Shown piece after piece: positions 31,936 through 63,574 of a DNA stretch of 64,000 bases. The stretch is from Escherichia phage CMSTMSU. The notes under the pieces were generated by a model. It searched no databases. It was not told where the DNA came from and saw only the letters and a list, made by a program, of their open reading frames with translations. How positions within the stretch are numbered: the stretch's first letter is position 1; each line of letters begins with the position of its first letter. Both the position numbers and the translations under genes were made by a program. The stretch lies in sequence record MH494197.1; one strand, 5' to 3'.

Positions 31936-31938
31936 TTT

Positions 31939-34254: not shown

Positions 34255-34282
34255 ATTATATCACATTCTTTGCGTTTGTCAA
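34255..34282 (-). promoter_or_regulatory. Strong sigma70-type promoter (TTGACA-16 nt-TATAAT with TGn extended -10), minus strand, upstream of ClpA-like gene
   Basis: Minus-strand TTGACAAACGCAAAGAATGTGATATAAT. Confidence 0.6.
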
Positions 34283-34325
34283 CAAGGTAAATAAAGATAT
34301 ACCCGATTTATTTTGGAGACAAACA

Positions 34326-35810
34326 TGGCATATAGAATGTGGAAAAAGGTAGAACCAATGATTACAAGTTCATTGACTCTGCCATAGCAGAACAATACAA
34401 CATCGGTGGTGTTGACATGTGGCTTTATGCCTATGTCGGACCAAAACAAGTCGCTGATAACACTGATTTATCATATGGCGGTGATTATTATGGATCAGAT
34501 AGTACCGTTGTGTCAAGCATTGGTGATTTAATTTTGGTGACACTCCAAGTCGTAACTATAATCTCGAAGCTATCACCTTAAGTTGCGTCTACCAAGTCCA
34601 AGAAGCAACTCCTGACTTGAAAATCCCGATTGTTCTTCAACTTTAACACTATGGACATCACAATTCATTATAACACAATGATTCAGCGTTTGGGAAGAAA
34701 AATTATGCCGTGACGTAATCGAACTTCCTAACTTACGTGATTTTGATGTACTTGGTAAAGATTCTGGTTTAAACCGCTTCTATGTAGTACAAGATGGGTT
34801 TAGAACGTCAGAAGGTTACTCAGTTACATGGCAACATCACATTTACAAACTCCGTGTTAAACCTCTTACTGATTCACCAGAGTACTCTGACCTTCTAGGT
34901 AACAATAACTACCCTGATGACCCAGATGATCCAAACAACGGCAATGGTAATACTGATGATGGCTCTTCAGAGAACAGCAGCTATGGTAATGAAATGGATA
35001 TTATGAACCGTATCATTATGCAAGCTGATGATGAAGTACCATACATTCATTTTACTAACGAACACTTGTTCGATGACAGACCAGATACTGTTGATTTGTC
35101 TAAGTATATGCTAAATGGATACGAATTACCAGAGGAACCAGCAAATAAAATGTATTTCCTCAAGAAAACTTACCCAGTACTGAAAGAACTATCTAATGAT
35201 ACATGGATTTCTGTAGAAGTCAAGCGTGGAACAATCTTTCCTCGCAAACCGATGGATGGTGACTTCTTCTTTAAAGAAAACGAGGCTGATGTCACTGGCT
35301 TCTCATTGTATCAATACGATAAATCTGCCAAAAGTGGCTAAATTGTGATGTTGAGTATACTACAGAAAGCACACCACCACAAGGGGTTGATGATTTTTAT
35401 ATTGAATACAAAGAACCACACATTTATCAGTACTTAAATGGTAAATGGGGAGAACCAGAAGTAACTTACGTTAATGACCCATTCACTTCTAATAGTGTTT
35501 ATGGAAATATCGATTCACAACAAGATTATCGTCCTAAGATTCCTCCAGCACGAGGTACAGTTCCTGAAGGTAACATGTTCCCAAGTGATGCAGTTGATGG
35601 TGATTACTACTATCGTACCGATTATACACCAGTAACCCTATGGGAATACAGTGCGTCCAAGAATTCTTGGGTGATTTTCGATTACGGTGGTAGAAAACCG
35701 TGGAAGGTGCAGATCTTGCTCTAACAGAATTTGTTAATAGCCCGAACCGTGTGCCATTACATGATGCAGTTAAACCTAATACAGTGTATCGTATACATAA
35801 GGATTCAGAA
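34326..35810 (+). CDS. Large hypothetical protein (about 495 codons), frame-broken
   Basis: GGAGA SD before ATG 34326; fragments 34339..34581, 34994..35341 and sub-60-aa pieces chain to stop near 35810; TAAATA core at 34290..34295. Confidence 0.4.
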
Positions 35811-37132
35811 TGAAAATAGATTATTATTATGATGGTCAATTTCGTCGAGTACTGAAACATCTTATCAGAGTGTTTGGTGAATTTCAAGTACAAAATGGTG
35901 TTGATGCTGACGGAAAACCAAAATATAAGAAAGTTCCTTGCCGCTATGCAGATATTTCACGTATGGCAGCAGCAATTATTAATGGTAACAGTGAGAACGT
36001 GCTTCCAACAGCACCAATCATGACCATTAGTGTAAACCAACTTAAACTAGATCGCAAGTCAGTTCGTTCAAACGCAAATGAAACATTGGTTATGGGGACT
36101 AACAAGTCCCGAATTAACGAATATACTAAAGACTTAGATAAACAGTATAAAGTAACTCGTCATAACCCAGTACCTTGGACATTTACTTTTGATGTTAATA
36201 TTTGGGTTACACAAACACAAACCAAAATGGAACTATTTGAGCAAATTTCAACATTGTTTGCTCCTAGTATTCAATTACAACTCTCCGAGAACCCATTGGA
36301 TTGGACATCATTGAGTGATGTGGAGTTAATTGACTGTCAATTTACTACTCGTGGTTTCCCACAAGGAACCGATAGTGATTTGGATATAATGATTTTGACA
36401 TTTGAAACAACAATTTGGTTCTCTTTGCCAGCTATTGTTGAGAAACCAAAACTTATTCAACAAATTACCACCAATATTAAAGGTGCTCGTGATGAACTTG
36501 ATTTTGAAATTGGTAATTACTCGGATATCATTACTGATGTATTCACACCAAAGAACTTATGTATTAAAGTTGATGAAATAACAAACTCTGAACTTAATAT
36601 TCCAGATACTTACCAACTCACTCTTGTTAGTCAATCACTATCAGAAACATCACCAAATGGTGGAATTTATTCATGGGAAAAATACCTTAAGTACTTGGAC
36701 CCAGAATATGAAGACAAGACGGTTGGTATCAAATTCCAACAAGCTATAGAAGAGGACAACCCACTAAAAGGACACATCTCTTCATTTGGTGAAGGTGCTG
36801 AATCTAACAAGATTGTAGTTCAGCTTGATAATAGTAATTATACTGTTGATTATACAATACATGGATTCATTAGTAAAAGCTCTTTGTTATATAACGCACT
36901 GCCTGAACAATATTATGTAAATAATAGCATACATAACATCATTTACAAAGAGACTGAAATCCCAGCGAACTATTTGTTTAAAATTACCAATGATGGAGCA
37001 GAACTTATTGAGCCATCACTAGTACACAACTATGTTTATAATATGGAAGATAGTGGATATTATAGATATAATGACAAATTCAAATGGCATAAGAGTATTA
37101 TGTCAGTATATCGTCAGGGTATTGGAAAATAA
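35810..37132 (+). CDS. Hypothetical protein, 440 aa, intact (structural by context; tail-tube-fold family is speculation)
   Basis: Uninterrupted ORF; AAGGA SD; overlapping stop/start with upstream gene. Confidence 0.55.
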   Translation: MKIDYYYDGQFRRVLKHLIRVFGEFQVQNGVDADGKPKYKKVPCRYADISRMAAAIINGNSENVLPTAPIMTISVNQLKLDRKSVRSNANETLVMGTNKSRINEYTKDLDKQYKVTRHNPVPWTFTFDVNIWVTQTQTKMELFEQISTLFAPSIQLQLSENPLDWTSLSDVELIDCQFTTRGFPQGTDSDLDIMILTFETTIWFSLPAIVEKPKLIQQITTNIKGARDELDFEIGNYSDIITDVFTPKNLCIKVDEITNSELNIPDTYQLTLVSQSLSETSPNGGIYSWEKYLKYLDPEYEDKTVGIKFQQAIEEDNPLKGHISSFGEGAESNKIVVQLDNSNYTVDYTIHGFISKSSLLYNALPEQYYVNNSIHNIIYKETEIPANYLFKITNDGAELIEPSLVHNYVYNMEDSGYYRYNDKFKWHKSIMSVYRQGIGK

Positions 37133-37161
37133 CTTTCACTGACAAATAAGGAGGTGTTGTT

Positions 37162-37623
37162 ATGAATGAAGCAGTAGGTGCTATATTTTTATCTAAAAGT
37201 ACTGGACATATGATGTTAAACTTGAGATCAGAAAGAAGTACGTATTCTAACAACTGGGCATTTGTTGGTGGGAAGCTTGAGTATAATGAAACTCCGTTAC
37301 AGGGTCTTATGCGTGAGATTAAAGAAGAGCTAGGTGATTCTATTCCAACGATAATAGATATTATACCATTTGATGTATTCTGTACGAAGAATGGTAAATT
37401 TAAATATTATTCATTTGTCATTGTAGTTGAAAATGAATTCGTACCTACTTTAAATCATGAGAGTTCGGGTTATGCATGGGTTAAGATTGGCTCATGGCCC
37501 AAACCATTACATCCGTGCAAAAACACATTACTTAACACAAATTTAATGAAGGATTTCTATTCATTGTGGGAAAGTATACGACAAGGTACACAGTTTGTCA
37601 ACAGCTTACCATATCGATATTAA
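37162..37623 (+). CDS. Nudix hydrolase
   Basis: Nudix box GGKLEYNETPLQGLMREIKEELG (GX5EX7REUXEEXGU); AGGAGGT SD; intact ORF. Confidence 0.85.
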   Translation: MNEAVGAIFLSKSTGHMMLNLRSERSTYSNNWAFVGGKLEYNETPLQGLMREIKEELGDSIPTIIDIIPFDVFCTKNGKFKYYSFVIVVENEFVPTLNHESSGYAWVKIGSWPKPLHPCKNTLLNTNLMKDFYSLWESIRQGTQFVNSLPYRY

Positions 37624-37624
37624 T

Positions 37625-37650
37625 AAAAAGGAGCCAATGGCTCCTTTTTC
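37625..37650. terminator. Bidirectional rho-independent terminator
   Basis: AAAAAGGAGCC-AAT-GGCTCCTTTTT between convergent genes. Confidence 0.65.
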
Positions 37651-37651
37651 T

Positions 37652-38325
37652 TTATACCCCAATTAGTGGGATACCTGTTATGTTAAGTAGAACAGATGCT
37701 TGAAGCTTAACTGACTCACCTGCCGAAAGGTTGTTTACTATACCATCGACGCGGAACCCTAAGTTTTTATTAGAGTTGAGAGAGTTAATCACCCAGTTTT
37801 CGTAATCCGCTTTTGTAATACCATTCGGATTTGGGAGAGTTGGATCAACATCATTAATTACCATAGAAACATCCCAATTCGGGCGACTACTTGTAATTAC
37901 ATCCTTGATTGATTCTAGTTGTGTAATGCGACGTGGATCTGGAATCTGACTTGCACCAATTGAACCGAAAAATGTACCTTGGTTATCAACATAGAACTGA
38001 CCTTTAATGAAAAATGTTTTGAATTATACGGAAGAGAAACAATTTCACCTGATGAATCACTAACTTCACGAATCATAATTTTCAATTCATAAAAATAGTT
38101 ACTACCAAATTCAAACACACCAGTACCATTTGTGAATGTTGTCCAGTTATTTGAATCAACCTGTGAAGTACCACCCATATTGAAGTACGCTAATGGCTTA
38201 GTACTGTTACTTTGTGTAAATTCAATATATTTCTTACCTGTATCATAGTTGATATCAAGTAGTGTTGAGTACTCTTTATTTTCTGGACGAGATGTTTGAA
38301 TTTCACGCCATTCTTTATTTTTCAT
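37652..38325 (-). CDS. Hypothetical virion/fiber-associated protein, frame-broken
   Basis: ORFs 37915..38325 and 37652..37864 joined by one frame break; TAATG overlap with upstream gene. Confidence 0.4.
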
Positions 38326-38745
38326 TAGGACACGAAGGAATCACCATTACTGGTAAGAACCATACGACCCATAATACTATTTTCACCATCTGGTACTGTG
38401 TTGAAAATTGAAATCATTGGGATAGATGCCCAGTCAGCTTCAGATGCAGTATCTACTGGCTGACGAGCATTATCAACTAATGCAAGAAGTAGTTCGCCAG
38501 TGTTGCCAGTATTTCTGTACCAAATCTGACCATTAACGTTACCACGAGGTGCAGTAGCTCCACTGAAGTTCTCAACCAAGTGGAGGAAGTTTTCGTTCCA
38601 TGCTTGACCGTAACCAACTTTATTTCGACCTGCAAAGTTTAACGGTACTGGGTTACTACCGTTGGTTTGGTCCTAATATTACGTTATTTGGAATGGTAGC
38701 ATAAACGCTACCATTACTTCTATAAATTGTATAACTTACACTCAT
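38325..38745 (-). CDS. Hypothetical protein (about 140 codons), frame-broken
   Basis: MSVSYTIYRSNGSVYATIPNNVI... joins ORF 38325..38579 (NENFLHLVENFSGATAPRGNVNGQIWYRNTG). Confidence 0.4.
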
Positions 38746-38757
38746 ATCATCACCTTA

Positions 38758-39363
38758 TTATTGTAGTTGGACACGAACTGTGTATTTGATTTGCAAAACA
38801 CGGTTAGCACTTTTCTCAACTGGGTGAAAAATAATATGGGTAAGTGGAATACCGCTATCACCATTTGTATATAAACCCAATTCGTCAAATACATATGTCC
38901 CATCCATGCTAGTACCAGAGCTAACACCTTGGTCAGATGGCTCACCTAAACCTAATGTGCAAATACAGACGATATCAGTGTAAGCTTGGCACGGAATGTG
39001 AACAGTTGTAATGTTGTTATATTGTGAATCAATACCAGCAGAGATACGTGGGTTGATTTTTTCAGATAAGTCTGAGAATATAGACCACCGAAAGAAGTAA
39101 CGCGTGGTTTCTTGTATGTGATACGACCAGTACTCAAAACTACTGTTCCACCATTACCAAAACGCATCTCACTAATAGATCCAATAGGAATACCAGTACT
39201 ATCTTGATTATAAGCCAACGCATTAGCAATAGCAGTACTCATATTTTCAGGGTGAATTGCGTTTGATTTATCCAAAACGATTTTTGGTTAGATGGATCAG
39301 TAACGTCAGTAATTAGTACATGACCCTTAACAAATAGTTTTGGTTGTTCTGTTTCTAATTTCA
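38758..39363 (-). CDS. Hypothetical protein (about 200 codons), frame-broken
   Basis: MKLETEQPKLF... joins ORF 38952..39275 and a C-terminal frame ending QIKYTVRVQLQ. Confidence 0.4.
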
Positions 39364-39408
39364 TTTCTAATCCTTAGTAGTTAATTAAAATTTGTTCTAA
39401 CTTACCAG

Positions 39409-39870
39409 CTAAACTTTTTGTACATCAGATGGATACTTGCTAATGTAATCACGGTCAATACCGACTTTCAGATAGGTAAAGTTTCCGGTTAAGGTTTCAG
39501 CGAATGTACCAGTTGTACCTTGTTCTCTAATAAGGTCACCGCCATTTGGGTTAAGAATGACATTATCAGTAAATTCAAGATAGAAGTTGCAGCTTTCGGT
39601 AAATTTAATTGGGAACCAATCATCGTCAGATGGATTACTTGCCAGTGTAGCGAGTACGTAAATTCTACCAATGAAGTTACGTAGGGTAAAGGATATTGTA
39701 TGTAATCCTGTAGTACTACCATAATAGCCGCCACTAGCTAATGGTAATGTTTGTTCGTTCCAATGATAATCTAAGTTAGCAGGATACCAGCTATCTGATT
39801 CAGGAAATTCTTGCCATGAACCATCTTTAGTTTTTCTTTTGAAGAGGAAGTCTTTTGATCTTAATGCCAT
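39409..39870 (-). CDS. Hypothetical protein, 153 aa, intact
   Basis: ORF 39409..39870; AAAAGGG SD; TAAATA core on minus strand in divergent intergenic region 39871..39979. Confidence 0.5.
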   Translation of the reverse strand: MALRSKDFLFKRKTKDGSWQEFPESDSWYPANLDYHWNEQTLPLASGGYYGSTTGLHTISFTLRNFIGRIYVLATLASNPSDDDWFPIKFTESCNFYLEFTDNVILNPNGGDLIREQGTTGTFAETLTGNFTYLKVGIDRDYISKYPSDVQKV

Positions 39871-39979
39871 TGTTAAGCCCTTTTAGTAGTGAACTTTCAT
39901 TTATTTATTAATGGCAACGAAATGTATTTTGTACTGATAAATATTGGTATATGACATTAACTCATACAAGGGAAATATT

Positions 39980-41105
39980 ATGACAATTTCATTCAACAAT
40001 GGGTCAGGTGGTTCATGTAATAATTCTGGCATCAAAAGTTTAGTTATTAACGCTGCTGGACATTTAATTGTAACCTATTCCGACAATACAATCCAAGACC
40101 TAGGTCTAGTGGTTGGACAAAATGGTGCTAACGGTAGAAACTTTTATCCAAATGAGATAGGTTTTGAAGTTCCTAATGAACTCTTCCGTGTTGGTGAAGA
40201 ACTAGGGTGGTGTTATCTTAGTCTTGCAAACGGCACTAGTACTTTATATTTTAAATCAAACGATGCCCAAGAAACAATTAGTACTTGGAACCGTGTAGAG
40301 TTTGGTAAAGGTGATACTGGTGAAGCTGGTAAACCATTCCACATTGACAGTTCTGGTACGGCGTTTCCAACAACTGGTCTTTTCGATAATTACACATTCT
40401 ATAATACTGAAGATGGTAAATTATATTTCTATCAAAGCGTAACTGCAACATGGAGTGATGGTATTCCTTTCCGTGGTGAACAAGGTCTACGTGGTCGTTT
40501 CCATATTGATAGTACTGGTAGTCAATTCCCAAGCATTGATAATCTACCACAAGATTATTGCTTCTATAACACGACAGATGGTAATTTGTATTATGTCGAT
40601 ATCGTAACTACATCATCAACCCCAACTAAAGAGTGGAGTGCTGGTATCTTATTCCGTGGAAAAGACGGTGAAGAAGGTAAGCAAGGTGAACAAGGTATTC
40701 AGGGTGAACGGTAAAGATACAGTTGTTATCATCAACACTATTGATCATTCATGGACTAACGCATTGTTAGTTATTGGTACATGCCCTGCTGGATACCTAG
40801 TAACTAATATCGAAGTTGATATTAACCAAGCATATGATGAACCAGTAAATGAAATGTTTGTACGTTTCGGTGGTGAAGCACAAGAAGATATTGGTGGTAC
40901 TGTAATTGCACCTGTTGATTATTTCGATATCAACCGCAAAATGCGTTACATTGTTAACGAAACCAACCACGAAGTATCAAGTAAAGATGAAATCATTTCT
41001 TGTGTATTCAATGATTCCGTAAACAACAGTTCATTTGGTGAAATGAAGATCGTTTGTACTTTATCATGGCAAGCACCTATTCAGCCTATTCAAGATAACA
41101 TTTAA
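39980..41105 (+). CDS. Fiber-like protein with internally duplicated module and short collagen-like G-X-Y run
   Basis: Two copies of FHID..G..FP...Y.FYNT.DG.LY...FRGEQG; GKDGEEGKQGEQGIQGE; joined to ORF 40638..41105 by one frame break; AAGGGA SD before ATG 39980. Confidence 0.5.
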
Positions 41106-41116
41106 AGAGGGTTGAT

Positions 41117-43207: not shown

Positions 43208-43262
43208 TGAAAGCTGCTCAACCAATAACATATATCACCCTATCTTAAAGGAGATTATAAAA

Positions 43263-44157: not shown

Positions 44158-44164
44158 AAAATAA

Positions 44165-44196
44165 TCCAGACTGCGTTCCATCGAGTCTGGATTTTT
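44165..44196 (+). terminator. Rho-independent terminator
   Basis: ATCCAGACT-loop-AGTCTGGAT hairpin followed by TTTTTAT. Confidence 0.6.
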
Positions 44197-44271
44197 ATAT
44201 TAATAACTAAATATATGTATATTAACAAGGTCAAATGTATTTTATGCTTTTGCCTATTTGGAGGGAACTAA

Positions 44272-49201: not shown

Positions 49202-49220
49202 CATTTTAAATTAATAATTA

Positions 49221-49250: not shown

Positions 49251-49347
49251 GTATTAGATAATAGTGTTTTGTGAATTAAACTAAATATAAGTATATTAAC
49301 AAAAGATGGGTTATGAATATATAGTTCATCGTTATAGGAGGGACTCT

Positions 49348-52300
49348 ATGTACTCGATTAAAACGGATCTTGATGTATCTGGTAATTCCACGGTAGGTAA
49401 GGATCTTTTGGTCAAAGGTAATGCAGTATTCAGTAATGACCTAACGGTTAATGGGGAAGTGTCTTTTGCTAACGCAGTATTCACTGCAATTACCGCTGGT
49501 TCTGTGAATGTCACAGGTGCATTGGATGTTGCTGGTAAGGCAACCTTATCCGGTGGTGCTGATGTTTCAGGTGCTGCGACATTTGCAGGAAACATTACTG
49601 CTGCTGACGGCACAACTGCAAAATTTGATAACTTAGAAGCTAATTCAGGATCATTTAATTCTGTTGAATCAACTGATATTACTTCAACTGGCACAGCAAC
49701 TTTTAAAGATGTAAACATTTCTGGTACACTTGGTGGTACTTTTAATCTTTCTGATATTAATGCTACAACACTTAATGTGTCTGGTGCTTCAGCACTAACT
49801 GGTTCAGTCACATTGGGTGCAAATATCACTGGTCTTGCAAGTACTGCAAACTTCCGTGATATTCGTATCGGGCCTAATGAAGAAGGTCAAGCATATAGAC
49901 TAAACTTTGGTTACACCGTTCGGACAACGACCAACCGTTCTTCTACAGAACGAAGTTCAATCCGAACTAATGTCTCCTGCTAAGTTGAATGTTCTACAAA
50001 CTGCAACATTTGGTGATTCTTCACTTTCAACTTACGGTATTACAGGTAATGGTTTAAACAAATTAGATTATGTAACTATTTCTGGTAACGCAATTCAATC
50101 ACCAACCACTCCTTTACTTGAAGTAACTAAAGGTAAAACTAAAGTTGTTGATTTAGAAGTGACTGGCGTAGCAACTATTCCTAATATCGAAAGTTCTGGT
50201 ACTGCAAACTTTAACAACATCAACGTATCTGGTACTATTGGTGGTAGTTTTGATTTAGATGATATCCAAGCAACAACATTATCAGTATCCGGTGCTTCAG
50301 CACTAACTGGTGCAGTTACATTGGGTGCAAACATCACTGGTCTAGCAAGTACTGCAACATTCAAAGCAATCAATTTGGGTCAAAATACCGCTGATGCTAA
50401 CGTTAAGCTAGGTTTTGCATATACTGCACCTAGTGCACGTCCAACAGTCTTGTTAGCAAACGAAGTTCAATCTGAACTAATGTCTCCTGCTAAGTTGAAC
50501 GTTCTACAAACTGCAACCTTCGGTTCTGCTGCACTATCTACCTATGGTATTACTGGTAATGGTCTAAACAAATTAGATTATCTAACAATTACTGGTAACG
50601 CAACACAAAACCCTGCTACTCCACAACTTCAAGTTGGTGGTAAAGCAATTCTTAATGATGTTGAATTTACAGGTACTGTAACTGGCCTAACTGTTGATGT
50701 GAGTGGACAAGATCTAACTCCTAAATCAGTAGTTGCTGCTGAAGCAATCAAAGGTCAAACTCTTGAATCAGTTGGTCAAACAACTGTAGGTTCATCTCTA
50801 CAAGTTGGTGGTACTGCAACTGTTACTGGTGCATTATCTGCTGCCGCTGGTACTTTCAGTGGTGATGTTAGTGGTTCTAAAGGTATCTTCAGTGATAGCG
50901 TATCCGGTACAAGTGCAACCTTTACTGGGGATGTTAGCGGTGATAACGCAACCTTTAGTGGCGATTTATCTGCTGTAGCTGGCACTTTCAGTGGTGATGT
51001 AACCGTAACTGGTCAAACAATCACTGTTAAAGACTTGGTAGTAACTGGAACTTCAACTGGTGTAACTGCAATCGCTGACGTTGACGGTCTTGATATTGCT
51101 CCAAACAAAGTTGATGTTACAACAACTCTATCTGTTGCTGGTGAATCAACTCTTGCTGGTGTTACAGCAACTTCAATCAATAGTACTGGTGCAATTGCAG
51201 GTACTGCAATTTCTGGCTCTACTATTACAGCAACTGGTGAAATTTCTGGTGCATCATCTGTAGTAACTGGTCTTTCTAAATCTGGTAGCGTTGAAACTGG
51301 TGCTCTAAAGGCATCTTCTGTTGAAACTGCAATCATTAGCAACACTGCTGGTGTGTCAATAACAAACAACACTTCAATTGCAGGTAATCTATCTGTAACT
51401 GGAACTGTTACCCCGTGCAATTGACCTAAGTACTACTGATATTGATGCTAAGTCTCTAACAACTACTGAAGGTGCTAACATTGGTGGTGACCTAGTTGTT
51501 GCAGGTACAGTTGATCTAAGTGCTGCTGACGTTGCTGTTAAATCTCTAACCAGTACTGGTGCAGTTATTAGTTCTGAAGGTACAGTAAGTAGTGTTCTAC
51601 CTAAACTTTCCAGTACTGAAGCTAATATTACCACAGTAACTGCAACCACTGCAAATGCTACCACACTAAATGTAACTGGTACATCAACTCTAGCTGGTGT
51701 TAACGCTTCTGGTGCTATTACTTCTGCAACTAACATTACCGCTACTGGTGTATTAAAGGTGCATCTGTTGAAACTGCGTCAATCAGCAATGCTGATGGTG
51801 TAGCAATTAACAATAACACTACAATCACTGGTAATTTGGACGTATCTGGGACATTGACCCGTGCAATTGACCTAAGTACTACTGATATTAGTTCTAAGTC
51901 TCTAACCACAACTGAAGGTGCTACAATTGGTGGCGATCTTGTGGTAGCAGGTACTGTTGATCTAAGTGCTGCTGATGTGTCGGTGAAATCTCTTGCAAGT
52001 GCAGAGACAATTACAAGTGCTGGTGTTATTACAGTTTCGGATACAGTGAATTCTAGCACTCTACCAAAACTAATTACTACTGATGCAACTATTGGTGCTG
52101 TCCATGCAGCTACTATTGAAACAACTGGTTCAAGTACACTAAAACAAGTATCTGCTACTGAAGTAACAGCTACAAGTATTGTACTAAATTCAGTTGGTGA
52201 AGGTTTACGTGTTGACAATAATGCAAACATTAATGGTATATTAAGTGTTAATAATATTACTTCTACCAATGATACTATTGCAATTGCGAAAAGTGCTGCT

Positions 52301-55050
52301 ATTACTGGTGATCTGACCGTATCTGGAACTGTTACCCCGGTGCAATTGACCTAAGTACTACCGATATTAGTTCTAAATCCTAAGTACTACTGAAGGTGCT
52401 ACAATTGGTGGTGACCTAGTTGTTAATGGTTCAATTGATTTAAGTTCTTCCAATGTTTCAGCAATTACCCTTGCTAGTTCTGGTAATACTACCGTTGGTG
52501 GTAACCTAGTACTAACAACTGGTGTTGTGACTGGCAGCCCATCTGTATCTGGTAACCTTTCAGTTGCAGGTACTGCGGCAGTAACTGGTGCAACTACCTA
52601 ACTGATATCGTAAATATCGGTAAGAAAGTAACTGTAAGCACTGGTGGTATTCAAGTAGTTGCAGGTGGTATTAATACCGACGCTATATTAGTATCCGGTG
52701 ATACAACTTTAAACAACACTACTGTAAACACTACCTTAAATGTAACTGGTCAAAGTACAGTTGCTGCACTAAGTGCTGCATCTTTGAATGTATCTGGTGA
52801 TAGTACTGTTCAAAACTAACAGTTGAAGGTGAATTGGTTCCACAAGGTGGTATCGACCTAACTGGTGCAGATATTTCTGCTAATAGTCTTGCAACTGCTT
52901 CAACAATCACTGCAACTGGACTAAGCACACTAAGTGGTGGTGTAAGTACTACTAATGTTACTGCATCTGGTACAGTGAATGCTGGTAGTTTGGATGTTAC
53001 TAACAACGCAACCGTTGGTGGTAATTTGGGTGTAACTGGTTCATTAACTTCTGGACCATTGAGTGTAACAGGCATTGCGAATATTACTGGTGTAACAACT
53101 GTTGGTTCATTGGTTTCCGGTGCTGTATCTGGTAGTACTGGTACATTTAGTTCAACATTAGGTGTAACTGGTGCAGCTACATTTGACAATGACGTAACTG
53201 TTGAAGGTGTATTCACCCCAGCAGGTGGTTTAGACCTAACAACTTCTGATATTACAGCTAAGAGTTTGTCAGTATCTGAAACTATTCACTCTGATGGTGC
53301 AGCTTCCTTTGGTGGTAACACAACAGTAGGTGGTACATTGGGTGTAACTGGTGCAGTAACTGCTCCATCGGCAACCCTAAGCGGTACTGGTACTGCACTA
53401 GCAGTAACTAATAATGCAACTATTGGTGGTACATTGGGTGTAACTGGTCAAGCAACACTTGGTTCTATAGTAACTTCTGGTGTATCTGCAACAAGTGGCT
53501 CTTTCAGTACTACTCTTGGCGTTACTGGTGCTGCGACATTTGGAAACGATGTAACTGTAGTTGGAACACTAACTCCGGTAGCTTAGATCTAACTGGTGCA
53601 GATATCTCTGCTAAAACACTAACTCTATCTGAAACATTAAATGCGACAGGTAATACTACCCTTGGTGGAACATTAGGTGTAACTGGTTTAGCAACAATTG
53701 GTGGAACACTAACGTCTGGTGCAGTAACTGCTCCATCTGCAACCTTGAATGGTTCAGGAACTGGTCTAGCAGTAACTAACAACGCAACCGTTGGTGGTAC
53801 ATTAGGTGTAGTTGGTCAAACAACACTAGGTTCTGTTAAAACTGGTGCAACTCTAACAGTTGGTACACCATTAGGTGAGCAGCCTGAAACTGTACAGATT
53901 ATGCCAGACACTTATATTGCTGGTAAACTACGTGTTGAGGGTGGTATTAACGCAGATATCGATGTTGGTGGACAAACACTAGAACCGTTTGCAGTAATAG
54001 CATCTGATTCTTTATCTTCTGCTGGTAATATTACTGCTGGTGCGGCAATTATTTCAAGTTCTGCAACAATTGGTGAAGTCGGTTCACAAAACAACAACCT
54101 AATCGTTAATGGTAACGTTGTAAACAACGGTAACTTCACTGTTACTGGTGTACTAAATGCACAATTGAACCAAGCAGATTCCGATGTAGCTGTTAAGTCT
54201 TTGACTGCAACTAACAACGTAGCTGCTGGAACCACATTAAGTGCAGGTACTGCAATTACTGCTGGTACTTCCATCACTGCAACTGGATTACTTAAAGGTA
54301 ATACTTTATTACTACTACTGGTTCATTTGGTGGTGCAGTAACTATGTCAAGTGGTGCAAACATCACTGGTACAGTGGGTATTACTGCTGGTAACCTAACA
54401 GTGGGTGGTGATATCTCTGCAACTGGCACTGCTGGATTCGGTGCAACAACCGTTTCTACAATTACAACATCAGGTTTGGCTACACTTGCAAGTACATCCG
54501 TTACTGGTAACGCAACAGTAGGTGGAACACTAGCAGTAACAGGAGCACTAACTGCGAATGGTAACGTAACATTAGGTGACGCAGCGGCTGACGTTCTAAC
54601 CGTTAATGCAACTTCATCATTTAAAGAAAATGCTGTGTTTGATAAGGCAGTAACAGTAACTGGTGAACTAACCACTACTAATGCTAACTTAACTACTACA
54701 ACAGTAACTACCAAAAGTATGATGTAATCCCAACTCAAGTTACATCATCAGTAATTGCTCCAACCGGAACATGGACTCCAGATGGTACAAGTAACGTGTA
54801 CTTCATCACTCTAGACCAAGATACCACGTTGGCTCCAATTACTGGCCTAATTGGTGGCGGTAAAGCTGCATCAGTATACATCTATGTTAAACAAGATACA
54901 ACTGGTAACAGAAACTTTACAACTGATGGTACTTATGCTGTTGTTGATGGTGAACTAAACAAAACTGCTGGTAGCGTGACCATTTACCAAGTAATTTATG
55001 ATGGTGTAAGTCCAGTTACTGATTTGTTCATTGCACAACGTACTGCTTAA
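49348..55050 (+). CDS. Giant repetitive fiber protein B (about 1900 codons), paralog of fiber A, frame-broken
   Basis: ORFs 49306..49983, 49907..51424, 51836..52354, 52834..53586, 53745..54341, 54344..54727, 54796..55050 chain; AGGAGGGA SD; starts MYSIKTDLD; ends ...VIYDGVSPVTDLFIAQRTA. Confidence 0.6.
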
Positions 55051-55066
55051 TAATTATAATAAAAAA

Positions 55067-55090
55067 CGGTGTCATCAATTATGGTGACAC
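55067..55090. terminator. Stem-loop after fiber B (orientation ambiguous)
   Basis: GGTGTCA-N10-TGACACC perfect 7-bp stem; A-run upstream, no T-run downstream. Confidence 0.35.
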
Positions 55091-55114
55091 CATCTTAACA
55101 AGTGAGGTAGTTAT

Positions 55115-55891: not shown

Positions 55892-55904
55892 TTTATATTT
55901 TTTT

Positions 55905-55935
55905 AAAGGTCAACTATGGTTGGCCTTTTCTTTTA
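55905..55935 (+). terminator. Rho-independent terminator
   Basis: AAAGGTCAAC-TATG-GTTGGCCTTT then TTCTTTT. Confidence 0.5.
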
Positions 55936-55982
55936 TCTAAAATAAATACTTAATATATAATCTATTCTGAGGAAATATTTAA

Positions 55983-57943
55983 ATGAGTATAAATCGAATT
56001 AGAGGTGATGGTGGTGTAATTATAGATAGTCAGGCATTTCTAGAATTACCTAAAGCACCGACTAAAGAAACCGCTGATGTGGTTAGATCAGGGATGATTA
56101 GATACAATAAAGGATGGAAAGCATTTGAAGGTGTACTAGACTTTGAAGATGGTTCAATGGCATATCGACGTTTTGCAAACCTAGATGCAAACGGTAAACT
56201 TCTTACTTCCCAATTACCAGATTCAGTAACTAGTGGTTTACAATTTGTTGGTACATATAATCCCATCCCAGATGATATCGATCCACCTTTAGCACAAACT
56301 CCACTACCAGCACCATCACCATCGCTTAATGGTGATTATTATGTCGTTCGTGGTATAATGGATGCCGCACAAGCACATTATGAAGCAAATAATCCACAAA
56401 CAAGTCCTGTTACATTTACACCTACAAATCCAACTGGACAAGGTAATTGGATTGAAATTTTATATTATGTTGACTCTAATCCAAATATATCTGGTGCTAA
56501 ACTAGTAACATACGCTTTTGCTAGAATTATTACTGCATCTATTCCCAGTACTGGACATGATGGCCTTGAAAATTTAGCAACAGATACTGACTTGACCAAA
56601 CCATTTGCATCTGGTGTTCCAATGAACCAAACTGCACTTTCAGATGGCGATTGGATTATTATAACTGAAGATAAGAATATACGTCTTCGTCAGTCAAGAA
56701 CAAGCATTTCCGCTGCTTCAGTATTATATGACAATACTGTAATGATTGCAAATCATCGTCAATTTAGAACAAACGCAGGGACCGTTCAAACATCCATAGA
56801 TAACGTTGTGATTGAGTGTTTACGTAGAACTGGCGATTCCATGTATAATGATGGAACAGACGGCTCTGGGCGTTTTGGGGTGGTGTATGGCAGTGCAGCA
56901 GCACCAGCATTGACATTTAATAATAATCCGTTTGACCCAACGAACAACCCGTAATGACCCAACTAAGTGGTCCGATGCTAATACTGGTATATTCCATCCA
57001 GCAGATGATGCAATTGGTTTTACAACAGCCGGAACTGAGCGTGTTCGAATTAATAATGGAACACTAACATTATTCCAAACTACCGCTACACCAGCAGCTA
57101 CGCCAGTAATACGTTTTGATAATGCATCAAACACAAACGTAGGGATAAGTGCAAGTAGTAATATTATTTCTTTAAGTTCAATGAATAAAATTCAAGTTGA
57201 ATTTAAAAATGGTGAATCACATTTTCATGGAAATATTATTGTAGATGGATCAACATCACTAACAGGTGATTTAAACGCAGGTAACATCACTGCCAGCGGA
57301 ATTTAGTTGTTAAAGGTAATACAACACTAGGCGACACTACTGGCGACACTATTACAGTTAATGGTGTTAGTACTTATAATGCAAATACTAATTTCAATGG
57401 AACTAATAACAAATTCAAAACATAAACTTACTAGAGAATGGTGTATTCACATTAGAAAGTACTACAAACCAAAGTGATATAAAACTACTTGGTGCAGACT
57501 TACGTTTCACTATGGGAAGTTATGCTGATGTAAGTATATATGATAACGGTGTTATTCGTACTCGTTTCAACCGATATGGTATTCAATTACCAGTACTGGC
57601 TACAATTGATAACTCAGTTGGTGTTGATGGTATGATTGCATACTCAAATACCGAACGTACATCGATGCAGAAGGTCCAAGGACAATGGGTTCCAATTGGT
57701 TCTGGTTCTGTACGTACTGACCCGTTTACTGCGTCAGCGTGGGTTTTAAACGGCTCATATTACACATTAACAGTAACTGCTAGTAACATAGTAACTGCTG
57801 AAATTCAAGAACTCGTAAGTACTGGTGTTTACACTCGTGTTGAAGTTGATAGTGTCACATTCAATGGAACAAGCGTAGTGTTCAGTATTCCTGCAACTCC
57901 TGATGTGAGATTTGCCGGACGTACACTGGTTACATTAAGATAA
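55983..57943 (+). CDS. Fiber-like protein (about 650 codons), frame-broken
   Basis: ORFs 55983..56954, 56932..57306, 57512..57943 chain; Gly/Thr/Asn-rich; ends at bidirectional terminator. Confidence 0.5.
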
Positions 57944-57944
57944 T

Positions 57945-57971
57945 AAAAAGGAGACTTATGTCTCCTTTTCT
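57945..57971. terminator. Bidirectional rho-independent terminator
   Basis: AAAAAGGAGAC-TTAT-GTCTCCTTTTC between convergent genes. Confidence 0.65.
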
Positions 57972-58899
57972 TTATACAGCCATTGGTGCTTTGATCGTTG
58001 GCATTGGATCGTAATTAACTAATTTGAAAGAATCCATAGTGAAATCTTCAATATCAGTAATAGTAGGATCTAACCATAATTCTGGTAATGTACGTGGTTC
58101 ACGTTGGAGTTGCTCTTTTACTTGTTCAATATGGTTTTGATAGATATGGCAGTCGCCACCATTCCAAATAAATTCACCAACATCTAACCCTGTAATTTGT
58201 GCAATCATATGAGTTAGTAGTGAGTAACTACTAATATTAAATGGCACACCAAGGAATAGATCAGCACTACGTTGATGAAGAATACAACTTAGTTTACCCT
58301 GTACAACACAAAACTGCACAAAGCTATGACAGGGTGGCAAAGTCATAGCATCAAGCTCACCAACGTTCCATGCACTTAGAATGTGACGACGACCATATGG
58401 ATCAGTATTGATACCTTCAATAACTTGTTTTAGCTGGTCAGTTACGACGCATAATAACACCATGTGAACCAGTATAATCAATAACTTTATACCCTTTATC
58501 TTTTAGTTCTTGAATTTCTTCAGTACTGGAACTGAATTTATAATCTTCCCATTCACGCCATTGTTTACCATAAACTGGGCCAAGCTCACCATCAGAATAC
58601 CCAAGGCTTACACCTTGATTAAGGTAGTTGTCTGTCCAAATTGTTTTCTTTTCTACATCACGTGTCCCGTGTAAAATTTCACACAGACGACGCTCATCGT
58701 GAGAACCTTCAATAAACCATAACAATTCTGAAGTCATTGCTTTCCAAGCTAAACGTTTAGTAGTTACTGCTGGGAAACCTTCTTTTAGGTCAAAACGCAT
58801 TTGTTGTCCGATTAGCTTGATAGTGCCAACACCAGTACGATCAACGCTTTCGACACCTTGATCCAGAATTCTTTGATATAGTTCTTGTAGTTGTTTCAT
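57972..58899 (-). CDS. td: Thymidylate synthase (ThyA/td), one frame break, no intron evident
   Basis: N-terminal half in ORF 58438..58962 ([31 protein letters not shown]), C-terminal half in 57972..58481 with active-site LPPCH; halves overlap at 58438..58481. Confidence 0.9.
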
Positions 58900-58900
58900 T

Positions 58901-59390
58901 TTACGTCCTTGAAAAATGTAATAAAGTGTTCCATGTGTTTTGTGTAGCATTACGTGAACCAATCCCAGTCCAGTTACCGTGTGGTGCTGGTATTGAGAAT
59001 GTTTCAGTAAACTCTTTCAGTACTGTATCATAATAAAATACAGAGCGAGTGTTCATATCATAACAATATATTTCTGGATTGTCAACTGAATCCATATACA
59101 TCTGTACGGCCCATGCAGTTCCACCTGAAACTTGCGTAGGTGATGTAATATTTGCAATACAATATACTCTTTTGTATTAAGTATCTGGTAACTATTCCTT
59201 GCAAGTAAGTTATATACATACGAACCGCTTAGGAACTTTACGGCGTAAAGAGTAACATGCAATGTTTAATTGTTTTAATATTGAACTATCACAAAGGATA
59301 TTGGGTGGAATTTCTAATATAGTATTTTCATCTACGCTGCTTTGGTGACCCTTGAATGAAAAATTTATTACTTCAAATCCATTGTCTTTT
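58901..59390 (-). CDS. Disrupted/uncertain coding region upstream of td (hypothetical)
   Basis: Only short ORF fragments (58901..59101, 59053..59262) in different frames; no recognisable motif. Confidence 0.25.
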
Positions 59391-59403
59391 GCATAGATAG
59401 AAA

Positions 59404-59432
59404 AAGGCGGTCAGCACCTGCTGCCCGCCACT
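59404..59432 (-). terminator. GC-rich rho-independent terminator, minus strand
   Basis: Minus-strand GGCGGGCAGC-AGGT-GCTGACCGCC followed by TTTTTCTATC. Confidence 0.5.
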
Positions 59433-59492
59433 GAAACATACATTAGATAAACCATTGATTGCTTCATCTAATTCTATTTTATTCATTTATAT

Positions 59493-60143
59493 TATTTTGC
59501 TTTACGTTCTGCAAATGCCTGTTTAACTTTCTCAATTGCTTTGGTTTGTGAAATTCCTTCTGGGATTTCAATATAGAAAGTTTTGCTATCAGGTGCTACA
59601 GGTGTTGCTTGAACTTGTGGACGTAGAGATGGTTCTAAGTTGTAAGCACGTTCAAAGTGCTCTTTAGCCAACTGCTCATAACGTTGTGCATCTTTAAGTA
59701 GTTGCTCAACAATGGTAGCTTCTTCAACAGAAGTATCAACTTCTTGTGGCTTGAATGGGTTGTATTCTTTAACTTTACCATCTTCATGTTTTTAGCATCA
59801 TTATCATTGATTGCGTTGTTTAGAACATCAAGAGAAATCTTACTGTTTCCACCAACATGCATATCAATATCACAAGTACGTGCACGACGCAAATGTTGTA
59901 GATTATGAAGAACATCTAGCATTTTGCGACCGTCTAGATGACCAATCTTATGCATAACTTCCCACAAATCTACATTCGATTGACCTTGATTCATTACTAA
60001 ATCTGCAACAGATTGAGCATATGCTTCAGGAAGTGAGTCGCGATAAACAATGAGACAATGTTCTGGATCATCAGGAGTGAACGCCATACCACAAATACTC
60101 GTGAACCCGTATTACGTACTACACCAACGTGACGAATAGCCAT
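59493..60143 (-). CDS. Hypothetical protein (about 215 codons), frame-broken
   Basis: MAIRHVGVVRNTGSRVFVV... joins ORF 59635..60087 and C-terminal frame ending KQAFAERKAK; AAGGAGA SD. Confidence 0.5.
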
Positions 60144-60146
60144 TAT

Positions 60147-60389
60147 TATTCTCCTTTATTTTGTTCAGCAGCAGCTTGTGCAGCATCAGCTTCTTCTTGT
60201 GCTTTGATATCTTCGAGTGCAGAGTTAGCAAACTCAACAAACTTAGATACGACTGGAGCAACATCAACAAGTTCTTCGACTTTAAATGAATTACGAGCCA
60301 CAGCAGCTTCCATGATTTTAGCAGCGTTGATTAGGTCGATTAGTGTTAGTTGAATTTTTCTGGTTCTTGTTCCATTTTAATACTCTCCA
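60147..60389 (-). CDS. Small acidic hypothetical protein
   Basis: MESIKMEQEPEKF...LIDLINAAKIMEAAVARNSFKVEEL...AEQNKGE with one homopolymer frame break; stop overlaps SD of downstream gene. Confidence 0.4.
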
Positions 60390-60475
60390 TGTATGTTGTT
60401 ACAAATATAATTATATCACCTTTTTCCAAGCTGTCCCGCTGAAAAAGTAGAAACGGAATTTTCCGTTCTCATTAT

Positions 60476-61889
60476 TTAGTACTTAGCTACGTTGACGCTT
60501 TTGTCAGCTTCATATTCGTAGTGTACAGTTTCGCCAAATGGTGCTTGTTTGTTAGGATTGCTGTGGATAACAAACAGTGTCTTACAGTAATCAGGATCAC
60601 CCCATGACTGCCACGGCTCACCATCGGTAAACATAATAAGCTGTTTAGGCTTATAGTTGTCATGCTTCATATGAACCCATACTGCTTCAAAGTCAGTACC
60701 ACCACCACCTTTCACTGGATATTCGAGAATCTTACTCTCTTCACCAGTTTTGTAATCTTTCACAGTATAAACTTCAGTATCGAACGTCATGATACGGATT
60801 TTAAATTGTTTAAACTGCTTAGTGATACCCAGTACTTCACTGATGAAATCACGGAGCATATCTTCAGAGATAGAACCGGATGCATCTAGTGCAATTGCAA
60901 TATCAATATCATCATCTGGTTTCATACCGGGAAGATTGGATTCCCGTAGAATGAACCAGAACTACCAAAACCAGCACCCCATGAACGACGATTAGGATTT
61001 TGATAAGTTGCATCAGACTTCAACCAGCTACGCAGTGTGCGGTGAAGTTTAGAACGCCAGTCAATCTTAGGTTCTTTGAAGTTGTTAATCATACGTGCGA
61101 TTTCAGCAGGAGTACCACCTGCACGAGCAGCATTCATCATTGCTGTTTTGAAATCATCCATATAATCACGTTTTTGTTTCTCACTTGAACCACCCTCTTG
61201 ACCTTCTTGTGGAACGTCATGCTGGTCGATTGTTGTACCTTTGCCTTTACCATCTTTGATATCACCAAAAGTACCGCGTGATTTACCTTCACCCTCACCA
61301 CTACCAGCCTGTGGATTTCCTTCACCTTCTCCGTCTTGATCCTGCTTATCTTCTTCTTCGAGAATATTATAAATCTCTTCAGCAGTCATACCATCGTACT
61401 TTTTATCGTACAGCCATTGGCTTTGGATTTTACCAATTTTATCACGAACAAGAATCTGGTTAATTGCATAGTCAGCAGCACGGTTATAACGCTGCGGGTC
61501 ACGCATACCACGACGCAAGAAGTGGTCATATGCACAGTGAAGAATTTCATGACAAATAACTGCAATCAGGTTTTCATCAGTCAAACCTTCTGTCATTTCT
61601 TTAAGTTGTTCTTCAGTTACTTCAGGATGTTTCTCACGAATTGCTTCTTCGTATGCTGACTTTTGGATTGGTCCTGAATACCCATGATGAATTCTACGTT
61701 GTAGAATAAATGCTTACCATCTACAGCCAAAGTACGACACCATGTGTTGTTTGCAACTGGACGCAGACGAGAAGCCAGTACACCAAAGAATGGGAATGTT
61801 AGCATTAAAGATGTGCGAGCTAAGATCAGACGATCTTGACATTCTTTCTGGAGAGCCGGAGTAACATCACTGAAACGTTTATCTGACAT
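60476..61889 (-). CDS. Two-domain protein: N-terminal HExxH metallopeptidase-like domain plus C-terminal VWA-like domain with MIDAS DxSGS; frame-broken
   Basis: ICHEILHCAYDH in ORF 60922..61596; ALDASGSI and Gly-rich GGGGTD in ORF 60476..60925; N-terminal piece 61617..61889. Confidence 0.6.
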
Positions 61890-61962
61890 TTGTATTTCCT
61901 CGTTTAGTTAAGATAAAGAAGGATACCATGTGGTATCCTCCTTGTCAACACTCTTTTAATTA

Positions 61963-63288
61963 TTAACCAAGAGAGCGTGCTTTACGTACTAGGTCAGAGT
62001 ACTTCATAACGAAGTCTTTAAACGCTGGTACATCTTTAATCGTAATCGCTACTTTATGAAGCGTGATGGTACGAATCGCCAGTACTGCCAGTTCTGCTTG
62101 AGTTGCAGAGAAGTTATGGTCTAGGAAGGTGATGAAGTTGTTGCACAGCTTACCCCAATCTTCCACTGGTAGACGTTGTTCTTGCTTCTCATTGTAGAGG
62201 TCGATAATTTTGTAAACCAGATTCAGAGTGATGAAGTAGTTCGCGGAAATATCGAGCGAAGCATCAATCTCTTTAATCTCACCCTGTAGGATGGACATGG
62301 TATCTGGTAGTTTAGCTACGTTATCAACATACTCGATGTATTCAGTTGCTACGCCTTCACCAACACGACCTGCAATCATCGCACGGAACACTTCTTTATC
62401 AATGTTCTTAACTTTCTTCAGATCTTCGTAGCGTGCTACTGCTTCCCATGAACGTGGAGAAGTACCACCACAGTGAGAAGGATCTTGTGGGCTAAGGGTG
62501 TTGAAGTGTTTAGCACCAGTGTTGTTGATGAACGCTACAGTTGCTGGGTTCAAACGCTTGCCAATCGCATAATCGTTAATCCAATCTTGATGATAAGGAA
62601 TCATTTCGATGTGGGTCATACGGTCACGCAGTGGTGTAGCTAGAGAGAACGTTACACCGCCATCAGTTTCACGGTTACCTGCTGCGAGAATCAGTGCAGT
62701 CTTAGGTAGCTTCATCTCACCAACACAACGGTCGAGGATTAGCTGATAAGACGCTGCCTGTACAATCGGCATTGCAGAGTTGATTTCGTCAAACAGAATA
62801 ACACCTTTCCAATCTGGAGACAGTTTCAGTACTTTAGGTGCTGCCCACACAACTGCTGTTTCAGCGATGTAATCTTGTGCACTAGCCAGTTCAGATTCAA
62901 TCAGTTGCTTACCATCCATATCAAGGAACACTTTCTCTGGAACTGGGATACCACGAAGGTCACTTGGTTCAATCTGAGACAAACGGAAATCGATAAAGTT
63001 AGTGTCTTGGTCGATTAGTTTGGCTTCAAACGCTGCCAGTTCACGGCGAAGTTGATCAGCATTTTCAGTATCAGCTTCGATTTGTTGTTTCATGAACTCA
63101 ATTTTGCCACGTTATCTTTACGCAGTGGGTAGTTCTCATCAGCGTATTGACGTGCGATAGCAGATTTACCGATACGGGCTACCCCAAATCATCAGGCTAT
63201 CTTGAATCATGTCAGCCAGTGCCATTGCTTCTTTAGCTTTCTTAGGAGTCAGTTTTACGTTCAGGATATCGTTGTTTTGAGTAGACAT
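61963..63288 (-). CDS. AAA+ ATPase of MoxR/CobS type, partner of the VWA protein; frame-broken near N-terminus
   Basis: Walker B ILFDEIN, sensor region LILAAGNRETDGG in ORF 61963..63093; Walker A-like IGKSAIARQYA in upstream frame; AAAGGAAA SD before ATG 63288. Confidence 0.7.
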
Positions 63289-63455
63289 GTATATTTTCCT
63301 TTTGTTGGATAAAATCGTTTAGGTTTCTATTATAGCCAATCCGTGGGCAAAGTAAAGGAACTGTGTTAAAAGAATTTTAACTTATCAGTTCCTTTGTTAC
63401 TTCATGAATCATCCGTGTATTTAAAAGGCATTTCTCTTTGCCGTCTTGATGTGTC

Positions 63456-63483
63456 ATTATATCACATCGTTCAGGCTTGTCAA
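63456..63483 (-). promoter_or_regulatory. Strong sigma70-type promoter (TTGACA-16 nt-TATAAT, TGn extended -10), minus strand
   Basis: Minus-strand TTGACAAGCCTGAACGATGTGATATAAT. Confidence 0.6.
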
Positions 63484-63546
63484 CAACTTTTTTATTTCTT
63501 TTCAATCTCACATCTTGTGATTTTGAAAACTTGCTTCGTGGTGGTC

Positions 63547-63574
63547 ATTATAACACATCATTCGGCGTTGTCAA
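63547..63574 (-). promoter_or_regulatory. Second tandem sigma70-type promoter (TTGACA-16 nt-TATAAT), minus strand
   Basis: Minus-strand TTGACAACGCCGAATGATGTGTTATAAT; about 90 bp direct repeat of 63456..63483 unit. Confidence 0.6.

Follow-up and report, generated by a model that had tools for sequence, protein, structure and literature searches.

What are the three near-identical promoter-like sites on the minus strand of Escherichia phage CMSTMSU, and which polymerase would read them? The sites lie in a 64,000-nt stretch of the phage genome (MH494197.1; hereafter the window, in whose coordinates positions are given unless phage fEgEco12 is named), and an initial annotation had proposed that they form a dedicated early promoter class for accessory genes. 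A dedicated class does exist and does include the three sites, but it has far more than three members and is not defined by TTGACA. It seems likely to us that the three are functional sigma-70-type promoters within this dispersed class, here called class B, which the host polymerase would be able to read and which would probably be active from the start of infection. The sites are:

34282-34255, minus strand: promoter of a ClpA-like gene; TTGACA, 16-bp spacer ending in TGTGA, TATAAT; 38 nt separate the end of the -10 from the ATG at 34216.
63574-63547, minus strand: distal promoter of a tandem pair; TTGACA, 16-bp spacer ending in TGTGT, TATAAT; an A-rich tract (63575-63600) lies just upstream.
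63483-63456, minus strand: proximal promoter of the tandem pair; TTGACA, 16-bp spacer ending in TGTGA, TATAAT, then ACATCAAG.

The architecture originally read at these positions, TTGACA-N16-(A)TGTG[A/T]TATAAT, is exact at all three, with spacers that end in ATGTG[A/T], and the sequence common to them can be written gTTGACAa-N10-(g)ATGTG[A/T]TATAATG. The GAC that had been reported to follow the -10 is found at both sites near 63.5 kb, whereas site 34255 has TATAATGTT. At each site the -35 and the -10 match the E. coli sigma-70 consensus at six of six positions, the 16-bp spacer fits the sigma-70 requirement of 17 +/- 1 bp, and TGTGA or TGTGT directly 5' of TATAAT makes an extended -10 element. 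A-tracts (gaaaataaagaaaaag and gaaaagaaataaaaaag), which look UP-like, can be read upstream of the two 63.5-kb sites, whereas the DNA upstream of 34255 is T-rich, not A-rich.

Perfect hexamer pairs of the form TTGACA-N15-18-TATAAT occur four times in the window against 0.18 expected, a count reached in 0 of 100 shuffles, and the fuller motif TTGACA-N11-TGTGn-TATAAT occurs three times against an analytic expectation of 1.4e-4 per window. Loose generic sigma-70 scans found no excess over shuffled sequence (23 vs 22.2; 31 vs 30.4), and the signal is thus confined to the perfect sites. The sole plus-strand perfect match in the window, TTGACA-15-TATAAT at 19200-19226, has a short spacer without TG and lies inside a baseplate-wedge gene; it was rejected as fortuitous, about one such match per genome being expected by chance. 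The two 63.5-kb sites are not independent members of the class. Units of ~100 nt around 63547 and 63456 align with a score of 24 (shuffle maximum 7), and the pair is a recent 91-bp tandem duplication that runs on into the A-rich tracts upstream and, downstream, into about the first 20 bases of the predicted transcript.

Megablast placed the window in the Asteriusvirus / 121Q-PBECO4 group of jumbo myoviruses of ~350-380 kb (121Q/RaK2-like). It is ~99% identical to and collinear with fEgEco12 (PP777464.1), EC.P1, WPEC3 and WPEC5 and 82-85% identical to 121Q-type phages, with weaker matches down to Klebsiella RaK2 and others. The genome-wide motif search suggested with the initial annotation was carried out on the complete fEgEco12 genome (assembled from nine pieces), whose predominant coding strand corresponds to the minus strand of the window. 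In that genome all 12 hexamer positions are matched at 45 sites, or at 33 if the second terminal repeat is left out; 43 of the 45 are on the coding strand. The pattern GACA-N16-TATAAT is found 41 times on the coding strand and 0 times on the opposite one.

Class A among these sites occupies the 21-kb terminal repeat, where it stands ahead of nearly every small gene. In one form, TTGACA-16, the palindrome AGTACTG directly adjoins TATAAT, and AGTACT is in some cases repeated shortly before the -35; the second form is aaaaagtaCTTGCA-17-gcgTATAAT (CTTGCA-17-gcgTATAAT), and in both the -10 is followed by (gt)tttACATCaag (ACATCAAG). Early transcription could be shut off through (C)AGTACT(G), if this palindrome serves as an operator. 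Class B is dispersed over 58-320 kb of fEgEco12 and reads [G/T/A][G/A]GACA, 16 bp, (G/T)GTG(A/C)TATAAT, most members having G[G/A]GACA as their -35. It was drawn from the 21 GACA-N16-TATAAT sites whose first two bases are not TT, a choice that gives a 16-bp spacer by construction; a scan with [G/T/A][G/A]GACA N15-19 TATAAT found the 16-bp spacer in 21 of 24 sites. Class-B sites are intergenic and lie before non-structural genes embedded in the structural module. Among the genes they precede are those for a sliding clamp, a gp32-like single-stranded DNA-binding protein, a primase, an exonuclease, a nudix protein, a protease and a gp55-like sigma factor, and three of the fEgEco12 sites precede stretches without a gene. 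Late (gp55-type) promoters carry a different signal, a TAAATA or TATAAATA-like -10 without a -35. TAAATA stands 35-65 nt before the start of 18 of the 23 structural genes sampled, but not before the ClpA-like gene or the ATPase gene downstream of the tandem sites.

Genome-wide, TTGACA is combined with the class-B TGTGn ending only at the three window sites. Scored outside the hexamers, sites 34255, 63547 and 63456 gave +1.7, +13.8 and +11.7 bits with the class-B matrix, for which class-B members left out in turn scored 2.4 +/- 8.1 bits, and -4.8, -15.4 and -9.9 bits with the class-A (terminal-repeat) matrix. They are without the AGTACTG spacer motif of class A, they lie 138-168 kb into the genome, and only 63456 has ACATCAAG. 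Their TTGACA also departs from the genus-specific, non-host -35 of class B, which is G[G/A]GACA in Asteriusvirus. Since their orthologues carry the class-B -35, we filed them as variants of the class, not as typical members; they are predicted class-B promoters that carry a host consensus -35 in this lineage. Three further class-B sites in the window were missing from the family as first listed:

60437-60410, minus strand: putative class-B promoter; GGGACA, 16-bp spacer ending in GGTGA, TATAAT; heads the g310-to-td operon; the orthologue in Salmonella phage Munch is ttGGGACAAactgagaaaaaTGTGATATAAT.
11388-11362, minus strand: putative class-B promoter; GGGACA, 15-bp spacer ending in GGTGC, TATAAT; before the gp55-like late sigma gene; Munch orthologue GGGACAAactggaaaaaTGTGATATAAT.
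6709-6682, minus strand: putative class-B promoter; GAGACA, 16-bp spacer ending in GGTGC, TATAAT; ahead of a non-coding unit.

The spacer of the second of these is 16 bp in fEgEco12 (site 190988), the window being short of one T in a T-run.

Comparison across relatives bears on function. The orthologue of site 34255 is TAGACA-16-TGTGATATAAT in G17, A4 and UE-S1 and GGGACA-16-TGTGATATAAT in Munch, and RaK2 has at this position a displaced TTGACA-18-TGATATAAT (TTGACA-18-cTGaTATAAT). The distal tandem site, 63547, keeps all 12 hexamer positions in RaK2, where the intergenic region is 73% identical; its -35 is GGGACA in Munch, and in CBB, GAP32 and Yersinia phage fHe-Yen9-03 the orthologue reads TGAAAC(G/A)-16-TGgTATAAT. 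Every Asteriusvirus relative has the proximal site, 63456, whereas RaK2, Munch and CBB lack it or have it in decayed form. In Munch, ttGGGACAAa-N9-aTGTGATATAAT stands before the ClpA-like gene, the g310 homologue, the gp55-like sigma gene and the ATPase gene. The -35 at orthologous promoters is thus GRGACA in Asteriusvirus, GGGACA in Munch and TG(A/G)AAC(G/A) in CBB, GAP32, Yen9-03 and BF; that a promoter is kept at orthologous positions while its -35 follows the phage genus supports function. The comparison shows the three putative promoters of the window as lineage-specific TTGACA versions of a class whose -35 is usually non-host.

The 108 bp of intergenic DNA that hold site 34255 separate two divergent genes, a structural gene (fEgEco12 g326) and the ClpA-like gene (g327), which encodes a 762-aa double AAA+ protein of ClpA/ClpB type with the domains AAA, AAA_2 and ClpB_D2-small. 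Within this region (34283-34330, plus strand) a TAAATA on the opposite strand serves the divergent structural gene; it is 3 nt from the -35 of the 34282 promoter, so early or middle and late polymerases may compete at the divergent pair. Sites 63547 and 63456 are found in a 316-bp intergenic region between a small gene of the upstream structural operon and a gene for a MoxR-like AAA ATPase, which is adjoined downstream by a gene for a DUF2201/VWA protein. All three sites had been described as immediately upstream of an accessory gene. This is true of 34255, at 38 nt, but 63456 and 63547 are ~160 and ~250 nt from the ATPase ATG at 63288, and a conserved hairpin with a T-run stands between.

A fourth site, upstream of the gene designated td, had been added to the family:

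59085-59057, minus strand: rejected td promoter; TTGACA-17-TATGAT, ~150 nt before the td ATG.

The motif is present, but it lies inside a DprA-like/DUF2493 coding sequence and its hexamers are decayed in A4 and RaK2, and we removed it from the family. The variants seen in relatives (-35 TTGAAA, CTGATA and AAGAAC; -10 TATGAC and TACGAC) look like ordinary codon changes. As td is the last gene of the operon headed by the class-B site at 60437-60410, that site is the real candidate for a td promoter.

In the account that we favor, class B would transcribe the genes for replication proteins, the gp55-like late sigma and accessory ATPases, together with a family of structured RNAs, always from the coding strand, and this placement holds also where such genes form islands inside the late structural module. 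A promoter that combines a consensus -35, a consensus -10 and TGn needs no activator for transcription by E. coli E-sigma70. Because the exact host TTGACA replaces GRGACA at the three sites, host E-sigma70 should recognize them unaided, and would then read them without a phage factor, probably from the start of infection. We know of no report that these phages have an RNA polymerase of their own. Site 34255 would drive the ClpA/ClpB-type AAA+ gene through a 38-nt leader, and sites 63547 and 63456 would fire into a leader of 160-250 nt ahead of the MoxR-like ATPase / VWA-DUF2201 pair, whose output would probably be attenuated or otherwise controlled at the RNA level. What the data establish is the sequence of the sites, their statistics, strand and intergenic placement, their class membership and their orthology; activity, holoenzyme and timing we infer. 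That the ClpA-like and ATPase genes are intact in relatives also counts in favor of this account.

Several observations weigh against it. In the literature searched we found no transcription-start or timing data for any Asteriusvirus. The class-B -35 varies by phage genus, whereas host sigma-70 is conserved, which suggests a factor specified by the phage and a class that may be 'middle', not 'early'; moreover, immediate-early transcription would more readily be expected of the dense terminal-repeat family, to which the three sites do not belong, so that 'early' is for them a tentative label. The spacer is 16 bp, where 17 bp is optimal, and a terminator-like hairpin separates sites 63547 and 63456 from the ATPase gene. 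Finally, both genes downstream of the sites are frameshifted in the window copy, probably by sequencing indels. The window is 81 nt shorter over 24 kb (about 0.3%) than its relatives, with single-base losses at homopolymers such as the T-run in the 11388 promoter spacer, a TTTT in the tail of the leader hairpin and CCCC/GGGGGG in the GC hairpin of the RNA gene described below. It thus seems to carry many indel errors, and these do not touch the three promoter sites. Genes such as the following are split in the window and are single long open reading frames (ORFs) in all close relatives, and probably look split through sequencing or assembly indels rather than as real pseudogenes:

57972-58962: td.
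49306-55050: tail fibre gene.
31930-34216: ClpA-like gene.
61963-63288: ATPase gene.

The genus-dependent -35 leads to a reading in which the sites are middle-phase promoters, used by the host core polymerase together with a phage factor (the RpoD-like sigma g519 or an AsiA/MotA-like appropriator), so that TTGACA would be a tolerated variant of GRGACA and the genes would come on after early proteins. We consider this rather unlikely as the explanation of the three sites. In its favor, the -35 at orthologous promoters changes with phage genus, whereas enterobacterial sigma-70 is essentially invariant; class B also serves replication genes and a late sigma gene, as T4 middle promoters do. The g519 product is a sigma-70-family protein with Pfam regions 2 and 3, and its operon is headed by a plain TTGACA-16-TATAAT at fEgEco12 301299, making conceivable a cascade from host sigma-70 to phage sigma, class B, the gp55-like sigma and the late genes. 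However, twelve of twelve hexamer positions with an extended -10 need no activator for E-sigma70, and Pfam finds no region 4 in g519. According to the fEgEco12 paper, Gp519 is absent from Ecwhy_1, a relative at 97% average nucleotide identity (ANI), and yet Ecwhy_1 is 98.3% identical over the intergenic region that holds the tandem promoters; for this reason the cascade is kept as a rival and not as a conclusion. A middle role is also compatible with the favored account, as the sites could fire both early and middle.

The second alternative concerns the tandem sites and the leader of the ATPase gene, in which the following elements were found:

63395-63349, minus strand: terminator-like hairpin and T-run, AAAGGAACTG...CAGTTCCTTT, between the tandem promoters and the ATPase gene.
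63348-63335, minus strand: small hairpin with a GGA loop, GCC-CACGGATT-GGC, ~45 nt before the Shine-Dalgarno sequence (AAGGAA).
63356-63329, minus strand: weaker promoter-like sequence, TTTACT and TATAAT, spaced by 16 bp here and 17 bp in relatives; it shares bases with the GGA hairpin and the terminator tail.

The terminator-like hairpin is in the minimum-free-energy fold of all nine phages compared, 35-110 nt past the promoter, and in G17 it is annotated as an ARNOLD terminator. Its stem occurs as GGAACTG/CAGTTCC, GGACTG/CAGTCC, GGCACTG/CAGTGCC and AGCACTGA/TCAGTGCT, variants that include compensatory substitutions and the compensatory deletion of a pair. These stems were compared from the folds and not from a MAFFT alignment; MAFFT misaligned the 5' arms because loop sizes differ. 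In the smaller hairpin the stem also varies (GCC/GGC, GCUU/AAGC, CAAA/UUUG, ACAAA/UUUGU) and the loop GGA is kept. Another GGAU motif is present upstream in the leader (63289-63455, minus strand): ACACGGATGA. The GGA motifs of the leader presumably resemble CsrA-type binding sites.

The TTTACT-TATAAT site was considered as the true ATPase promoter and rejected: Asteriusvirus phages keep its -10, RaK2 has the weakened form TATCAT, and Munch, CBB and GAP32 have lost it. The conserved element of the leader is probably another one, and as TTTACT-TATAAT is unconserved beyond Asteriusvirus and RaK2, the structured leader would be fed by the tandem promoters. A mini-ORF in the leader, ATG-AAG-TAA, was also rejected, not being conserved in A4, and Rfam gave nothing credible for the leader at relaxed E-values. 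The leader may be an attenuator, a source of short RNA, or a region in double use as the terminator of the upstream late operon.

If the second of these roles were the main one, sites 63547 and 63456 would chiefly yield an RNA of ~195 or ~105 nt, a small RNA (sRNA) or sponge-like RNA ending at the hairpin and T-run, and the ATPase gene would be transcribed from the TTTACT-TATAAT site or by read-through. The order of promoter, 35-110 nt, and covarying hairpin with T-run is kept from Asteriusvirus as far as CBB and Yen9-03, phages whose ATPase is only 58-60% identical; the short segment has two conserved motifs, UAAGAC and GGAU; and the terminator annotation in G17 agrees with such an end. Nevertheless we find this doubtful. 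The promoter-like site past the hairpin is not kept in Munch, CBB and GAP32, so that the ATPase gene there needs read-through, and the conserved GGA-loop hairpin downstream of the terminator implies a functional read-through leader. The hairpin could equally terminate the upstream late operon, and no Rfam family matched.

It is very improbable that the sites are fortuitous consensus-like matches in AT-rich intergenic DNA without promoter function: loose sigma-70-like sites are indeed as many as in shuffles (23 vs 22.2; 31 vs 30.4) and an intragenic TTGACA-15-TATAAT does occur at 19200, but only 1.4e-4 occurrences of the full motif are expected per window, the strand bias is perfect genome-wide, the sites are intergenic and point towards genes, and different genera retain a promoter at the same position although its sequence has turned over.

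Also found behind class-B promoters was a family of RNA genes, represented in the window by:

6674-6173, minus strand: putative structured non-coding RNA gene, ~500 nt, behind the class-B promoter at 6709-6682, with a terminator-like hairpin at ~6246-6220 and a conserved GC hairpin.

The minus strand of this stretch has no ORF of at least 40 aa. It is 95% identical to 121Q-type phages, against a background of 82-85%, and is far better conserved than the flanking genes. Homologues found by blastn are 73% identical in Munch, 70% in CBB/GAP32 and 66% in Yersinia, Erwinia and Serratia phages, at 4-5 diverged places per genome that are mostly unannotated. There are four paralogues in fEgEco12, at 59.9, 110.6, 195.7 and 307.2 kb, and those at 59.9, 110.6 and 195.7 kb are directly behind the class-B promoters that precede no gene:

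fEgEco12 59909-60275: RNA paralogue.
fEgEco12 110615-111168: RNA paralogue.
fEgEco12 307170-307553: RNA paralogue.

Nearly every copy of the RNA is preceded by a class-B promoter of its own genus. A scan of IMG/VR with a 23-base conserved pattern found 20 loci, all on jumbo-phage contigs or fragments thereof. The RNAalifold consensus over 24 distinct copies has 83 pairs in 16 helices. Its cells pair in 96.3% of cases, compared with 40-44% when partners are slid; 310 cells are changed on both sides, compared with 31-52 in the slid controls; and the covariation score is 0.457, compared with 0.06-0.08, a value reached in 0 of 500 shuffles. Rfam 15 gave nothing at gathering score in the whole window and, at relaxed E-values, no credible match to the RNA gene in the window and four orthologous loci, and ARAGORN found no tRNA or tmRNA. 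Homology to the PA5oct transcripts ncRNA001/002 was considered, and nhmmer found none (two of the four PA5oct ncRNAs were compared). The family appears to be confined to RaK2-like jumbo phages and previously undescribed. It could act as a trans-acting structured RNA or as an origin or primer RNA; GC skew is uninformative on an origin role because it merely follows gene orientation.

We tentatively suggest, with less assurance than for the favored account, that a phage-specific regulon exists and that the three TTGACA sites are 'escapes' from it which the host can read. Such a regulon would use a phage-encoded specificity factor, with a -35 of GGGACA, GAGACA or TGGAACG according to genus, and would also drive the ~500-nt RNA family, whether as a trans-acting ribonucleoprotein RNA or as an origin or primer RNA in the manner of ColE1 RNA II or T4 oriF/oriG.

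Related jumbo phages already have predicted promoter classes of sigma-70 type, and what we describe is expected phage regulation, not a new kind. Buttimer et al. (2017; PMC5259590, citing Abbasifar et al., 2014) reported three kinds of predicted promoter for CBB and GAP32: RpoD-like ones that have UP elements, 'divergent RpoD-like' ones with TGAAACG, and late ones with ATAAATA. These phages belong to the same supergroup as ours and are similar in having consensus sigma-70 promoters with UP-like tracts in the early region, an ATAAATA late class, and a second class that combines a normal -10 with an unusual -35 and precedes genes for DNA metabolism and a gp55-like sigma; the orthologue of the tandem sites of the window is of the TGAAACG type. 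The second class here differs in its -35, which is G[G/A]GACA and three times TTGACA, and the 16-bp spacing and GTGn are defined here, all of these being predictions. T4 uses the host core polymerase, with strong sigma-70-type early promoters and a gp55-type sigma for late TATAAATA-like promoters. The likeness to T4 lies in a second class, before replication genes, that pairs an excellent extended -10 with a non-host element in the -35 region; however, no MotA box or T4 early consensus was seen, the non-host element is at the -35 itself with a fixed 16-bp spacing, and the phage here encodes an RpoD-like sigma itself. At the three sites all the elements are at consensus together, with a spacer of 16 bp and not 17 bp, a combination that is rare among natural host promoters. 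The sites are otherwise like E. coli promoters with an extended -10 and UP element (Estrem et al., 1998, as cited in PMC5259590) in having TG at -15/-14, TATAAT and TTGACA, and, in the case of 63547 and 63456, A-tracts around -40 to -50.

For PA5oct, a distant relative in the same jumbo-phage clade, RNA-seq revealed four ncRNAs as well as transcription starts around which 32 promoters with the motifs TTGAC and TATAATA lie; its authors infer reliance on the host RNA polymerase from a rifampicin experiment (Lood et al., 2020; PMC7318152). PA5oct differs in having a Pseudomonas host, and its motifs were not split into classes. In the literature searched we found no description of promoters or ncRNAs for Asteriusvirus.

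By themselves, the three promoters are what would be expected of a phage that depends on the host RNA polymerase. They anchor a predicted three-class promoter map for Asteriusvirus, composed of terminal-repeat early promoters, dispersed GRGACA-16-TGnTATAAT promoters and TAAATA late promoters, and the natural TT/GG variation at orthologous -35 elements offers a ready-made handle on whether the dispersed class needs a phage factor. Tracing class B also exposed an unannotated, multi-copy, covarying RNA family, which outweighs the promoters themselves in its importance for annotation and for the engineering of therapeutic jumbo phages.

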